From a phage, in the NCBI GenBank assembly GCA_024674815.1, contig GCA_024674815.1_4104.1: a DNA stretch of 64,000 nucleotides; one strand, written 5' to 3'. Positions 35,377 through 44,936 of the stretch are shown here, piece by piece (position 1 is the stretch's first letter; every line of letters starts with the position of its first letter). Made by a program: the position numbers and the translations under genes. The notes beneath the pieces are model-generated. The model searched no databases. It had not been told where the DNA came from and worked only from the letters and a program-made list of their open reading frames with translations.

Positions 35377-35748
35377 TTATGACATACGCTTATTATGAAT
35401 GGAATTATGAATGGATTTTAAATAATTATATAATTTTATCAATCCACTACCAGTAGCTACAAACAGTAGTGCTGTTGGTATCATACATCCAAACATGGTT
35501 ATTAATTCATGTATTTCCATACCATCACTATTTGGTCCCACATCAAATATAACAACCAAAACAACACCTAAAATGCTTAGACAATAATATCCCATAAAGA
35601 CCATAAAAGTGATATATCCGGCACTTGATTTAATATTACATAACATATTATACACTGGATTAATACAGAAGAAGTATAATAACCATGCCAGTGTTCCAGT
35701 ACTGAACATAATAATTGAAATAATGGAAAATATCTCACGGTAACTCAT
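35377..35748 (-). CDS. small multi-pass membrane protein, family member (123 aa)
   Basis: 3-4 hydrophobic helices; member of 10-gene family. Confidence 0.55.
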   Translation of the reverse strand: MSYREIFSIISIIMFSTGTLAWLLYFFCINPVYNMLCNIKSSAGYITFMVFMGYYCLSILGVVLVVIFDVGPNSDGMEIHELITMFGCMIPTALLFVATGSGLIKLYNYLKSIHNSIHNKRMS

Positions 35749-35749
35749 A

Positions 35750-36112
35750 TTATTTCCTCATACCCAAACGTTGGTGGATTTCAGAGATCTTTATATATAA
35801 TAGTACCACAAGGTGCAGTACTAAACAACATATAATTACGGCTAATACCAATGAACATATCATAAGACCGAAGGTTATTGTATTCAAAGAGGATGTGAAC
35901 AGTCCAATTATTAATACAATAAAACCAAAATTGAATACTGTACCCAACACAGTATATGCTGGACTATATCTCTTTTGGATTACATCATATATATTTGATA
36001 ATGGTCGCTTATGGAAGTACTTCCCAATGCACACGAATGCATTCAGTGAGAAGATAAATGTATACGCCATTACTAGTAATTGACCAACGAAAGATAATTC
36101 TATCCCATTCAT
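35750..36112 (-). CDS. small membrane protein, family member (120 aa)
   Basis: start at MNGIELSF (ATG abutting upstream stop). Confidence 0.5.
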   Translation of the reverse strand: MNGIELSFVGQLLVMAYTFIFSLNAFVCIGKYFHKRPLSNIYDVIQKRYSPAYTVLGTVFNFGFIVLIIGLFTSSLNTITFGLMICSLVLAVIICCLVLHLVVLLYIKISEIHQRLGMRK

Positions 36113-36113
36113 A

Positions 36114-36482
36114 CTAACCTCGTTTACGTTTTTTAATTGTACTGTGCATCTTTTCGAAATAGGGAACCAAAACATATTGAACAGTTTGCCAGATAACCAT
36201 TAGATTATGCACTGCACCACCAAGGATACCAAACACTAGAACAATAATTGCCATAATAGGATCACCGTCTACCATACCCCATTTAAAGATATGTAAAATC
36301 CAAGCAATGACTAGACAAAATAAACTAAGCCAATACGTAATGAAAAATCCGGCTTGTAATTCATAATCATCAGCAATTTCATCGTATACCGTTTCTAAAA
36401 ATGATACACAAAAGAATTTACCAATTATAACCACAGTACTAATAAACAGCATAGCAGTTAAGATAATAAGAGCAATTTCCAT
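36114..36482 (-). CDS. small membrane protein, family member (122 aa)
   Basis: hydrophobic helices; basic C-tail KKRKRG. Confidence 0.55.
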   Translation of the reverse strand: MEIALIILTAMLFISTVVIIGKFFCVSFLETVYDEIADDYELQAGFFITYWLSLFCLVIAWILHIFKWGMVDGDPIMAIIVLVFGILGGAVHNLMVIWQTVQYVLVPYFEKMHSTIKKRKRG

Positions 36483-36796
36483 TACATCCCTCGTTTACGC
36501 TTTTGATTGCGTCTAAATTCTGATAGTCCACGGCTAATCGGCGGCATCAGACTACATAAAAAAGTAACAGTTGTTGGTAGTAACATCAAGTCAATCATTG
36601 CAGTGTTATCTGGTGGATCAAAAACCAAAAAATACACACAAGAAACACTAATAATGGTTGAACCGATAAAAGGAATACAAAATTCTTTTATCTGTTTTTC
36701 AACATAATCAAACATCTTGAGTACAAATAAAAATCCAACCCAACACATAATGAAATAGAATGAATACAACGTGTAAATCAATGTTACTATATCCAT
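36482..36796 (-). CDS. small membrane protein, family member (104 aa)
   Basis: start/stop overlap with neighbours. Confidence 0.55.
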   Translation of the reverse strand: MDIVTLIYTLYSFYFIMCWVGFLFVLKMFDYVEKQIKEFCIPFIGSTIISVSCVYFLVFDPPDNTAMIDLMLLPTTVTFLCSLMPPISRGLSEFRRNQKRKRGM

Positions 36797-37134
36797 TAGT
36801 ACCTCGCATCAGGAACTTTAGCACGTAACTTATGAACGACTGGGAACAACAACAAACTTACATATGCAATAGTTGAACCCCAATAGAATACTAATACAAT
36901 TGGTTCACCATTAGAACGGAAACCTCTACTAATCATTGAGTAGTGAATAATAGGCATAATCATCGCCATACCAAACCATGCGTGTAATTTTAATTGCAGC
37001 ATGTTATCAGCGATGAATACTGAAATTGGTCGTTTAAAGAACCACATCAGAAAGTAGAATCCAGCACTAATAATATAGTACATGGTACTAACTTTCATAT
37101 ACCACGGCAGTAAATCAATAAAGTACTCCATCAT
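36796..37134 (-). CDS. small membrane protein, family member (112 aa)
   Basis: hydrophobic helices. Confidence 0.55.
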   Translation of the reverse strand: MMEYFIDLLPWYMKVSTMYYIISAGFYFLMWFFKRPISVFIADNMLQLKLHAWFGMAMIMPIIHYSMISRGFRSNGEPIVLVFYWGSTIAYVSLLLFPVVHKLRAKVPDARY

Positions 37135-37478
37135 TCCTCCGGTATCTTATTTCGAAGTTCAATCATAACACAACAAATTTTAATGGTCAATATAAAAGTT
37201 AAACATATCATCCCAAGTGTGCCGTAAACTGCGGAAAAAGCTGGTAGTACCTTTCCTGTGAGTGTTGCTACAATACATGCAATCAATGTTGATGCAAACA
37301 ACGATTGATTAATGGCAGAATTTATAAAATCTTCACCATTACGTTTATAGAATTGTCGTTTAAAATACCATCCTAGAAACATAACTACCCAAAATGATAC
37401 ATAAGTTGTTAGAATAATCCCTGCAAGTGAATGTGCAACTGGACTACTCCTTAAAAACTCAAGATAAGCTTCAAACAT
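37131..37478 (-). CDS. small membrane protein, family member (115 aa)
   Basis: C-term RNKIPEE motif. Confidence 0.55.
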   Translation of the reverse strand: MFEAYLEFLRSSPVAHSLAGIILTTYVSFWVVMFLGWYFKRQFYKRNGEDFINSAINQSLFASTLIACIVATLTGKVLPAFSAVYGTLGMICLTFILTIKICCVMIELRNKIPEE

Positions 37479-37816
37479 TAGAAGTCTCCGCGAATTTTAT
37501 CTCTACCATGAATAATGAGATGGATTAAGTATACAACTAACCAAATGAACAACCCAAAGAATACAATATATTGTGAGATTGAGTTCAAATGAGGATTAGC
37601 ACAATAAATTAAGTGTGCCATAAGACCAACAATTGCAAACAAACCTTGAACTAGTGTGTAAAGAACTAGTGATGAATTCCTTACTGGATACAGTTTAAAA
37701 ACAATTTTCTTTTTAAAATACCACAGTACTACAACCAGTGCATGATAAAAGAAAAAACCAAACAGATAAATCAAAGTAATACTAATCATTGTATCTGAAT
37801 TAAAAAACTCAAGCAT
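37478..37816 (-). CDS. small membrane protein, family member (112 aa)
   Basis: first gene of 7-gene membrane array. Confidence 0.55.
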   Translation of the reverse strand: MLEFFNSDTMISITLIYLFGFFFYHALVVVLWYFKKKIVFKLYPVRNSSLVLYTLVQGLFAIVGLMAHLIYCANPHLNSISQYIVFFGLFIWLVVYLIHLIIHGRDKIRGDF

Positions 37817-43256: not shown

Positions 43257-43637
43257 TCAAAATAAATTCATTTCATGTGCGTATTGTGGTTCAAGATAAG
43301 ATAAGTTTTTGAAACTGTCTTTCAATTCCGCATCATCTACGTACACAGTACCAGGTACATTCCCCATAGTGAAGCCAACCCAAACAGTCATGTTTCCAGT
43401 TCCTAAGCGGGGCATTGATAGCGTCCCGTCAGGTGAAACATCAAACGCTACACTAAAGTCATCCGTTACAACTTCCGACCCATTTTCCAGAATAATACAA
43501 CCACGTTCTTTAAGCTTCTGAATGTGGATAGCAGCCTCTACAGCACGTTTAAAGTTATAATAAGACTCTTTATCCTCGAACATTGATTGTTTAACCAGAC
43601 GCTTGTTTAGCTCGGTTACTTTGTGCATTTGACGCAT
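43257..43637 (-). CDS. hypothetical protein (126 aa)
   Basis: ATG overlapping upstream stop; track start is GTG. Confidence 0.5.
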   Translation of the reverse strand: MRQMHKVTELNKRLVKQSMFEDKESYYNFKRAVEAAIHIQKLKERGCIILENGSEVVTDDFSVAFDVSPDGTLSMPRLGTGNMTVWVGFTMGNVPGTVYVDDAELKDSFKNLSYLEPQYAHEMNLF

Positions 43638-43891
43638 TACTTCAACTCCCACAGTTGTAGAATTTCATAAGAGCCTGGTGGTGCTGGATTGATAATCTCA
43701 GGGTATTCAGTACTGTTAGGATTACCACCAGCATTGAACTCAGCAAGTAATAATTCGAGTTCATTCCTATCATGTACAACAAACACGCAATATCCAGTTC
43801 CTTCTTCAAGAACTGTAGTTGACCCCGCACAATCCCATACGGTATCAATACATAATAATTCTTTAGTGTTTTTATTACGCAACGCAAACAT
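43637..43891 (-). CDS. hypothetical protein (84 aa)
   Basis: ATG ORF. Confidence 0.45.
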   Translation of the reverse strand: MFALRNKNTKELLCIDTVWDCAGSTTVLEEGTGYCVFVVHDRNELELLLAEFNAGGNPNSTEYPEIINPAPPGSYEILQLWELK

Positions 43892-43900
43892 ATATGTCTC

Positions 43901-44245
43901 CTATCGATTCGGCATATTCTTTCGTAGTCGCAAGAGAAATTCAACCACTGACCATGTTGTAATGAAGGCTATATAAGTTGCAAGGAATCCAGTAAGAATA
44001 AATGCAACCAGCGTACTACCATTTGGGGAATCAGTTTTAATGCCGATGACACCATCGGCTACAGTGAAACATGTAGCCATTAATGTGTAACCTACGTACA
44101 ACACAAAGAAAAACTCATTCTCCATTGAAGGATAGAAACGGTTAAACACTTTATAAAATTTAAAGTACAGTAGGATTATACCAACAAAGGCATAGAATGT
44201 AAACAGTGTTGTTATAATATATGAGATTAGGTTCAAATTATACAT
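43901..44245 (-). CDS. small membrane protein, family member (114 aa)
   Basis: C-term LRKNMPNR; same family as 35377-37816 array. Confidence 0.5.
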   Translation of the reverse strand: MYNLNLISYIITTLFTFYAFVGIILLYFKFYKVFNRFYPSMENEFFFVLYVGYTLMATCFTVADGVIGIKTDSPNGSTLVAFILTGFLATYIAFITTWSVVEFLLRLRKNMPNR

Positions 44246-44246
44246 A

Positions 44247-44588
44247 TCAACGCTCCGGTAGATTATCACGTAATGTTTTAATTCGATGATACATTTTCAT
44301 ACCAATATTACCAAAGATACCATATCCAAGTACTAAAATGTATGCAATAAGCATAGTAATAATTACTATAGTGCCAAAACTATAATGTACACTACTGATA
44401 CCCATTGTAGTTTCAACGATTATTTGAGAAACTGAAAGAATCAAAAGTACAACTACAATTGGATGATTTGGGTACATTCGGTTGAACAACGTTTTGTACT
44501 TAAAGAAGCACAGTACTCCACCGAATAAGAAGTACACAATGTAAATGCAAGCAACAGCATAGGCAAACATGTTAGTGTAATAAATCAT
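44247..44588 (-). CDS. small membrane protein, family member (113 aa)
   Basis: C-term LRDNLPER. Confidence 0.5.
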   Translation of the reverse strand: MIYYTNMFAYAVACIYIVYFLFGGVLCFFKYKTLFNRMYPNHPIVVVLLILSVSQIIVETTMGISSVHYSFGTIVIITMLIAYILVLGYGIFGNIGMKMYHRIKTLRDNLPER

Positions 44589-44597
44589 TACCAATCC

Positions 44598-44936
44598 TTA
44601 CTTTTCAGGGATATTAGAACGCCATATATCAATGCGATGAACTAGTCCAAAGAACAACCATACTGGAACGGCAGCTATCATAACAACAAATGAAAACCCA
44701 GTCAACACCGATACCAGATTTAATTCATCAGTACTATACCCACATATCAGTACTTCTAATATTCCCCACGTACATGCACAAAACATCAAGAATGAAATTG
44801 GGGCATCATAGTAGATACGTTCATATAAAGTAGTATATCGGAAGAATGCAATAATATAGCAAAACATATAATACACCCAAACCAAAGATACTACATAAAA
44901 TGATACTTTGTTTATTAATTCAAAATATTGTTCCAT
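44598..44936 (-). CDS. small membrane protein, family member (112 aa)
   Basis: C-term WRSNIPEK. Confidence 0.55.
   Translation of the reverse strand: MEQYFELINKVSFYVVSLVWVYYMFCYIIAFFRYTTLYERIYYDAPISFLMFCACTWGILEVLICGYSTDELNLVSVLTGFSFVVMIAAVPVWLFFGLVHRIDIWRSNIPEK

Follow-up and report, generated by a model that had tools for sequence, protein, structure and literature searches.

A diverged family of ten predicted membrane proteins encoded by two gene arrays of an Asteriusvirus-type jumbo coliphage

The stretch of phage DNA analysed here (64,000 nucleotides of contig GCA_024674815.1_4104.1, GenBank assembly GCA_024674815.1; hereafter the window) encodes ten small predicted membrane proteins, m1 to m10, on its minus strand. 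Their genes lie in two arrays: array A contains seven consecutive open reading frames (ORFs; positions 35377–37816, m7 through m1) and array B contains three (positions 43901–44936, m10 through m8). By profile comparison, the ten proteins are shown to form one ancient and diverged family made up of two clades, clade 1 (m5 to m10) and clade 2 (m1 to m4). A first-pass annotation of the window had described ten paralogous proteins of 104–123 amino acids encoded in this way. The ORF listing bears out their number and arrangement, and the sizes hold once the starts of m2, m8 and m9 are moved to the coupled ATG codons (36112, 44245 and 44588, respectively) annotated in related phages. Inside the span 35377–44936, which had been reported as one feature, about 6 kb of unrelated genes separate the two arrays. 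Over the region 34600–46000 the window is 97–99% identical to the Asteriusvirus-type jumbo coliphages vB_EcoM_E9.1, slurp01, phAPEC6, 121Q and PBECO4 (genomes of about 350–370 kb), and by this measure the source genome is that of a 121Q/phAPEC6-type (Asteriusvirus-type) jumbo coliphage. In GenBank record PP886230 (98.9% identical, 736 annotated features), the ten genes are called with the same refined coordinates, every one of them labelled 'hypothetical protein'.

Pairwise BLAST comparison gives a clear relationship only among m8, m9 and m10, and most other pairs are weak. Because such similarities are weak and prone to reflect composition, profile-profile comparison with a reversed-sequence control was used instead. 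Orthologs from phages BF17, A4 and Turkey5 were assembled into ortholog profiles and compared with hhalign, the reversed sequences accounting for whatever similarity stems from composition or from hydrophobic periodicity. No such control scores above 18.5, while real pairs score 28–90 and are colinear over their full length. The proteins m8, m9 and m10 score 63–90 with each other (90 for m9 with m10 and 70 for m8 with m10), and m5 scores 53 with m6. The best-connected member is m6, with scores of 37–42 against m8, m9 and m10; m7 reaches 34–36 with m9 and m10. In clade 2, m3 pairs with m2 (40) and with m1 (32), and pairs that span the two clades are m2 with m6 (30) and m1 with m10 (28). The placement of m4 was ambiguous before a diverged metagenomic jumbo-phage contig, L005 (ENA ERZ27235495), was added to the profiles. 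With these enriched profiles, m4 matches clade 2 with a probability of 96.7% (E 3e-10) and clade 1 with a probability of 90% (E 2e-6), and clade 2 matches clade 1 with a probability of 91% (E 1e-6), reversed controls scoring no more than 15. The m4 ortholog of L005 is matched by all three hidden Markov models (HMMs). When the two clade HMMs are run against the 369 window ORFs of at least 50 amino acids, the members of the other clade rank directly behind those of its own and neither model finds an eleventh family member; the reciprocal cross-detection also holds at five other loci. The paralogy first proposed from the sequence alone is thereby confirmed for all ten proteins, which do align with one another when the reversed control is applied.

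Each of the ten proteins is predicted to cross the membrane several times, with maximum hydropathy values (Kyte-Doolittle, 19-residue window) of 2.0–3.1. The AlphaFold2 model of m10 (predicted local distance difference test score, pLDDT, of 69) contains three transmembrane (TM) helices, formed by residues 2–31, 45–66 and 74–108. The model of m6, calculated from an alignment of 45 sequences (pLDDT 82.4, predicted template-modelling score 0.61), has helices at residues 2–11, 13–38, 42–53, 55–76 and 81–110. These are three long helices with short accessory ones, which indicates three TM helices and not four. Of the three to four hydrophobic helices described in the first-pass annotation, the multi-pass character is therefore retained, on hydropathy and on the models, and the four-helix count is dropped. 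At the level of these models, each protein of the family is a three-helix bundle.

The charge distribution points to a topology in which the amino-terminus and the second loop are periplasmic, and the first loop and the basic carboxy-terminal tail are cytoplasmic. In clade 1 the net charge is −1.0 for the amino-terminus, +2.4 for loop 1, −0.5 for loop 2 and +1.3 for the carboxy-terminal tail; in clade 2 it is −1.4 for loop 2 and +3.7 for the tail. The proteins are presumably located in the inner membrane, and with this topology both conserved motifs of the family would be on the cytoplasmic face. The first of these motifs directly follows TM1 and the second is at the carboxy-terminus. In clade 1 they read LW[FY]FK[RK](P) and R-x-[KN]-[ILM]-P-[EDN], and over the 45 aligned sequences Phe39 and Lys/Arg40 are conserved in 100%, Arg109 in 96%, Ile112 in 78%, Pro113 in 73% and Trp37 in 71%. 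In clade 2 the position after TM1 is occupied by IGKFF, with the same invariant phenylalanine, and the carboxy-terminal motif is [FIM]-H/R-x-x-[IL]-x-x-KR. The m4 orthologs have a carboxy-terminus intermediate between those of the clades, for example FRDNLKEKKEY in L005. The only residues conserved throughout the family are the Phe and Lys/Arg just after TM1 and the carboxy-terminal R/H-x-x-[ILM]-(P)-basic motif. Within sets of orthologs, the variable half of the protein comprises TM2, loop 2 and TM3. A length of about 100–125 amino acids, three predicted TM helices, the Phe and Lys/Arg after TM1 and the carboxy-terminal motif are shared by the ten window proteins and all the aligned relatives.

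Array A begins with m7 (37478–37816, 112 amino acids), preceded at 7 nucleotides by a GGAGA Shine-Dalgarno sequence; its juxtamembrane motif is LWYFKKK and its carboxy-terminal tail ends in RDKIRGDF. It is followed by m6 (37131–37478, 115 amino acids, GWYFKRQFYKR, LRNKIPEE) and m5 (36796–37134, 112 amino acids, MWFFKRPIS, LRAKVPDARY), the other two clade 1 proteins of this array. The clade 2 genes come next, headed by the most divergent member of the family, m4 (36482–36796, 104 amino acids, tail FRRNQKRKRGM), and then by m3 (36114–36482, 122 amino acids, IGKFFCV, MHSTIKKRKRG), m2 (35750–36112, 120 amino acids, IGKYFHKRP, IHQRLGMRK) and the last gene of the array, m1 (35377–35748, 123 amino acids, LYFFCINPVYN, IHNSIHNKRMS). 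The longest ORF of m2 would begin at 36175; the ATG at 36112, which gives the coding sequence of 363 nucleotides called in PP886230, is preferred. In array B, all members of which are clade 1 proteins, the first is m10 (44598–44936, 112 amino acids, AFFRYTTLYERIYYDAP, WRSNIPEK), followed by m9 (44247–44588, 113 amino acids, CFFKYKTLFNRMYP, LRDNLPER) and m8 (43901–44245, 114 amino acids, LYFKFYKVFNRFYP, LRKNMPNR); the coding sequences of m9 and m8 in PP886230 are 342 and 345 nucleotides long. Array B forms part of a longer packed operon, in which a gene here called p93 precedes m10 with a spacing of +2 nucleotides and a gene called p84 follows m8 at +9.

The spacings at the junctions of array A are, from m7 to m1, −1, −4, −1, −1, +1 and +1 nucleotides, the start of m5 overlapping the stop of m6 by 4 nucleotides; in array B they are +9 (m10 to m9) and +1 (m9 to m8). 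The start/stop overlaps described in the first-pass annotation thus apply to four junctions of array A; the other two of that array are one-nucleotide gaps and array B contains no overlap. Tight coupling of the genes, as a structural claim, is upheld by these spacings. The final two or three codons of each upstream gene also contain the Shine-Dalgarno sequence (GGAG or GAGG) of the gene that follows, as in CCG GAG GAA TGA, which encodes ...PEE followed by the stop. Part of the carboxy-terminal similarity in Glu, Gly and Arg is consequently dual-coded and constrained at the nucleotide level. The R-x-K-I-P motif lies upstream of the codons that carry the Shine-Dalgarno sequence and is also retained in m8, the last family member of array B. 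The related basic tails that had been pointed out earlier are real (R-x-K-I-P in m5 to m10 and [FIM]-H/R-x-x-[IL]..KR in m1 to m4), with the reservation that their last codons double as ribosome-binding sequence.

The family has a narrow distribution. A tblastn search with m10 matches only 36 phages, all of them jumbo phages of Escherichia or Salmonella. In a word-index search of 5.8 billion proteins, clade 1 is represented by 26 clusters and clade 2 by 9, every one of them belonging to this phage group. When the clade 1 profile is run with HMMER over the full set of 1.84 billion cluster representatives, just 40 proteins reach E <= 1e-3. Almost all of them are full-length, at about 101–121 amino acids; the exceptions are fragments of 56 and 89 amino acids and one repetitive, apparently spurious protein of 217. 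Twenty clusters that were checked come from Logan, ENA and JGI metagenome assemblies and have uninformative names, two being 'hypothetical protein'; 2 of the 20 are on contigs of 324–362 kb. A tblastn search with a diverged metagenomic member gives no match among the isolate phages. By these searches, the family does not extend beyond jumbo phages of the Asteriusvirus type and a small number of uncultured relatives.

Comparison with known families gives little. Pfam, NCBIfam and PADLOC searches with the ten proteins, and a Pfam search with the 45 aligned members, produce scattered sub-threshold matches, with no family matched by more than one member; the best E-value of a profile search against PDB sequences is 0.15, and Foldseek finds nothing at E <= 0.001 in the PDB or BFVD. 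Nine of the ten proteins can be assigned to PHROGs, eight of them at E 1e-50 to 6e-70 and m8 at 3e-4, while m2 is without one. The PHROGs concerned (phrog_27618 for m1, phrog_26405 for m3, phrog_33258 for m4, phrog_27396 for m5, phrog_19046 for m6, phrog_19454 for m7 and phrog_19285 for m10) are kept as seven separate families, all of 'unknown function'. They are here brought together as a single superfamily, for which a signature and a topology are defined and which has not been described previously. The earlier statement that the family was not recognised was justified. Neither the array genes nor any data on their expression are mentioned in the literature consulted on phages phAPEC6, Sharanji, fEgEco12 and CBB and on paralogous membrane proteins of jumbo phages.

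A trivial explanation would be that the ten are non-functional ORFs, hydrophobic frames that happen to be open in AT-rich DNA and whose resemblance is one of composition alone. The weak raw BLAST similarity of most pairs agrees with this, as does the general tendency of TM proteins to align spuriously. Yet the reversed-sequence control separates true from compositional similarity, the conserved motifs are discrete, the starts are coupled and provided with Shine-Dalgarno sequences, and database homologues are nearly all of full length. Family members are also kept in phages whose neighbouring AAA+ protein is just 57% identical. Between the window and BF17 the ratio of non-synonymous to synonymous substitution rates (dN/dS) is 0.10–0.38 for the ten genes and 0.06–0.30 for their neighbours, which indicates purifying selection on the array genes. 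Hardly any credence can be given to the spurious-ORF explanation, and comparative sequence analysis shows the ten ORFs to be real, selected genes.

The arrays vary between relatives. Compared with A4, the array proteins are 25–67% identical, whereas neighbouring genes reach 93–99%, and the AAA+, p79, denV, p83tm and p184 proteins 95–99%, which places the arrays in mosaic, recombining blocks. Between the window and BF17, the synonymous divergence (dS) of adjacent array genes ranges from 0.14 to 1.5, an approximately ten-fold spread, against 0.04–0.33 in the conserved central block, and this spread points to recombination at the level of single genes. Copy number differs too: array B has one member in A4, three in BF17, three in Turkey5 (where an unrelated gene is inserted) and two in L010, m4 is duplicated in Turkey5, and L005 has an extra m2-like copy and two more members. 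In L005 the clade 2 order m4-m3-m2-m1 is retained despite deep divergence, while no one-to-one orthology can be assigned for its three clade 1 genes. L005 (ENA ERZ27235495 k119_77662, 324 kb) and L010 (GCA_000227035.1 AGFT01054919.1, 362 kb) are both metagenomic contigs of jumbo-phage size. They share with the window the synteny of a T7-type kinase, the NrdC.10-like AAA+ protein and the membrane-protein array, and L005 also has the convergent RCC1 genes, at protein identities of only 25–57%; by gene order and size, both look like undescribed relatives of Asteriusvirus.

On the minus strand between 34.7 and 47 kb, strong sigma70-type promoters occupy intergenic gaps, including those upstream of both arrays. 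The promoter of array A (37846–37874, minus strand, TTGACA-17-TACTAT) lies upstream of m7 and contains an inverted repeat, AGTACTAC/GTAGTACT, in its spacer. It is conserved in BF17 and Turkey5 (TTGACA ... TACAAT), although in Turkey5 the flanking genes are just 40–58% identical; in L005 and L010 the array directly follows the AAA+ gene and has no separate promoter. The operon p93-m10-m9-m8-p84 is preceded by a promoter at 45257–45285 (minus strand, TTGACA-17-TATTCT). The T4-type late motif TATAAATA is depleted in the window, with 2 copies against 13.8 expected, and no copy in the 64 kb is near either array. The two copies (48373–48380 and 49022–49029, minus strand) are located 17–37 nucleotides upstream of the ORFs 47079–48356 and 48602–48985, which are annotated as 'virion structural protein' in PP886230; this pattern suggests T4-like late transcription in this phage. 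The related phage CBB has RpoD-like promoters in its early region, where the ORFs are short, and an ATAAATA-type motif ahead of its structural genes (PMC5259590); the promoter classes of the window agree with those proposed for CBB. The phAPEC6 paper, whose main text includes a table of 62 virion proteins, makes no mention there of the orthologs gp012–gp017 (gp028–029 were not searched for). Promoter type and this silence suggest that the array proteins are probably transcribed early and are not part of the virion.

A palindromic hairpin with a perfect 11-bp stem (AATCCAGTACT-TGAT-AGTACTGGATT) is found at 35347–35372, directly downstream of the stop codon of m1. It has no T-run on the minus strand and is consequently not a classical intrinsic terminator for array A; it is possible that it forms a 3′ end or processing structure of the transcript. 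The inverted repeat in the promoter spacer upstream of m7 is related to this palindrome, and a second palindrome, CAGTACT-N-AGTACTG, is present at 29898–29913 (2 matches against 0.01 expected). The octamer AGTACTAC is over-represented in the window, with 26 copies against 2.95 expected and a maximum of 9 in shuffled sequences (for example at 37848–37855, 37862–37869 and 37725–37732). It was considered as a regulatory element and rejected, there being no extended consensus around the copies; the excess could be due to codon or dipeptide bias, or to a site linked to modification or restriction.

Size and predicted topology invite comparison with class I holins such as lambda S105, and the array proteins could be holin- or antiholin-like factors that set the time of lysis. 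By prediction they have the dimensions of that class (about 95–130 amino acids, three TM helices, amino-terminus out and carboxy-terminus in, a charged cytoplasmic tail), at about 105–120 amino acids, and 1 of the 45 family members gives a sub-threshold match to Phage_holin_2 (E 6e-4). But no holin family of Pfam or NCBIfam is matched consistently, and the annotation and domain scans of the surrounding genes reveal neither an endolysin nor a spanin. In 121Q-type phages the endolysin is gp532 (PMC5259590), while m10 corresponds to gene 207 in the 121Q record, placing the proteins outside the lysis cassette. The promoters are of the sigma70 type rather than late, and holins in ten copies, seven of which keep a fixed order, would be without precedent. 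A conserved juxtamembrane FFK motif is not known as a holin feature. A role in lysis timing is, on balance, very improbable.

The gene directly upstream of array A (37882–38652, minus strand) encodes a 256-residue AAA+ ATPase (Pfam AAA) that tblastn relates to T4-type nrdC.10, with about 40% identity to T4 NrdC.10. It occupies this position in all six lineages examined (the window, Turkey5, A4, BF17, L005 and L010), and in L005 only 1 nucleotide separates its stop codon from the start of the array. The remaining neighbours of the arrays comprise a homing endonuclease, denV, a kinase and hypothetical genes. This arrangement raises the possibility that the paralogues come together as subunits of a single hetero-oligomeric assembly in the inner membrane, built early in infection, with translational coupling setting the stoichiometry, and that the assembly may dock the NrdC.10-like ATPase through the cytoplasmic-face motif. 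The overlaps or one-nucleotide gaps throughout array A would fit such a complex, as would the constant position of the AAA+ gene, the lack of a separate promoter in L005 and L010, the clade 2 order kept in L005 and the fact that the sole family-wide conserved residues face the cytoplasm.

Several observations argue the other way. Copy number and composition differ between close relatives, the range of dS between adjacent members is hard to square with co-adapted subunits, array B is 6 kb away in another operon with one to three copies, and tight packing is usual in phage operons. Moreover, more than 1300 phage records, most of them from T4-type phages (of Escherichia, Klebsiella, Vibrio, Acinetobacter and others), contain a homologue of NrdC.10, which several of them label 'thioredoxin'. 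In the one T4-type nrdC region that was inspected, nrdC.10 is followed by genes for soluble proteins and not by a TM array, so that the ATPase does not need the array proteins. For the same reason, and because the adjacency is lineage-specific, deriving a function for the arrays from their AAA+ neighbour was rejected as uninformative. A multi-subunit assembly is accordingly judged unlikely, and its most specific form, in which the seven paralogues of array A, possibly with those of array B, make a hetero-oligomeric platform that recruits the ATPase through the Phe-Lys and R-x-K-I-P motifs, is distinctly improbable.

Immunity proteins against pore-forming colicins and the ionophores of contact-dependent inhibition (CDI) systems are likewise small, polytopic proteins of the inner membrane; their genes often lie in diversified tandem arrays, and their specificity resides in the membrane-embedded parts. 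The array proteins share this general appearance, and could neutralise pore-forming colicins, CDI ionophores or the pore-forming effectors of abortive infection, one paralogue for each class of attacker, and so keep the infected cell energised. Such a role would be in line with a variable membrane and periplasmic half combined with a conserved cytoplasmic face and with the probably early, non-structural context. The idea is purely analogical, however: there is no similarity to colicin or CDI immunity families, the sole PADLOC match being to PycTM at noise level (E 0.026), no toxin gene is adjacent to the arrays among the annotated and Pfam-scanned neighbours, and the genes belong to a virulent jumbo phage, not to a toxin locus. 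We regard dedicated toxin immunity as improbable.

The reading that we tentatively prefer, as plausible but far from secure, is broader: the arrays may encode a panel of independently evolving early accessory proteins of the inner membrane, which would guard the host envelope or modulate it, as superinfection-exclusion or immunity factors do. In this scheme, host RNA polymerase would transcribe the arrays from the sigma70-type promoters as translationally coupled early operons, and the proteins would enter the inner membrane of the host shortly after infection. Each paralogue would then act as a separate takeover or guard factor, its variable membrane and periplasmic half engaging a different inner-membrane target or entry route, and the shared cytoplasmic-face motif could serve a common function in insertion, anchoring or partner binding. 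Superinfection exclusion or envelope modulation, which the first-pass annotation had suggested, is compatible with the sigma70-type promoters, the missing late motif and the inner-membrane topology, and likewise with the silence of the phAPEC6 virion paper, the variation in copy number and the gene-by-gene mosaicism.

Phage T4 offers one of the closest parallels: its Imm and Sp proteins are small, early, non-structural inner-membrane proteins that act on the envelope and are encoded in variable accessory regions of a large myovirus genome. The array proteins resemble them in being small phage membrane proteins encoded in variable regions of a large genome and may share their early, non-structural character, and the adjacent AAA+ protein is homologous to T4 NrdC.10. 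They differ in showing no sequence or profile similarity to them (Pfam, PHROGs, NCBIfam), in having three predicted TM helices and 104–123 amino acids where Imm has two TM helices and about 83, and in forming a ten-member paralogous family where T4 has single genes.

Certain results weigh against a panel of envelope guards. The searches of sequence, profile, fold and literature provide no link to any exclusion, immunity or envelope-modulating protein, and the early timing is derived from promoter motifs only, the literature search having found no Asteriusvirus transcriptome. Diversifying selection is rejected at the whole-gene level by the dN/dS values, all below 1, so no arms-race signature is seen at that level. 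Flanking genes that do not encode membrane proteins (g220, p93 and p139) are variable too, and part of the divergence therefore belongs to the mosaic block structure and is not specific to the arrays. Finally, the kept order m4-m3-m2-m1 would suit stable subfunctionalisation or a multi-subunit assembly better than an arms-race array with rapid turnover.

Other elements of the region deserve mention. The ORF at 38722–39843 (minus strand) encodes 373 amino acids with four internal repeats of about 58 residues (TEQFIEEAKKRRTDVDFDYSKVNYIN.KTK.TIIDPEFGEF...); its position is annotated in relatives as a homing or HNH endonuclease or as 'exonuclease ABC C subunit', and is the main insertion or deletion difference among related phages. 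An array of paralogous RCC1-repeat genes on the plus strand (about 32298–34692 and upstream) converges on the region; these genes are labelled 'regulator of chromosome condensation' or 'DNA condensation protein', and the phAPEC6 virion table includes DNA condensation proteins gp003 and gp005. Two further hydrophobic ORFs on the minus strand are not family members. The first (42158–42409, 83 amino acids) is 99–100% identical in A4, BF17 and Turkey5, against 25–67% for the array genes, and the second (40604–40798, 64 amino acids) is absent from these three phages.

Families of small membrane ORFans are common in large and giant phages, so that finding one more is not surprising in itself. Here, a single undescribed membrane-protein family takes up ten genes in jumbo phages of the 121Q/phAPEC6 group, and what were formerly 'hypothetical proteins' become a testable unit with a signature, a predicted topology, probable early and non-structural status and evidence of purifying selection. 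If the proteins did form a platform that recruits the ATPase, they would represent a previously unknown phage membrane machine, and a complex with the NrdC.10-like ATPase would give the first functional clue to NrdC.10, an uncharacterised ATPase that T4-like phages have in common. Should the proteins be exclusion or immunity factors, they would constitute an envelope shield of multiple specificities, with a bearing on competition between phages and on phage-therapy cocktails that contain Asteriusvirus phages.

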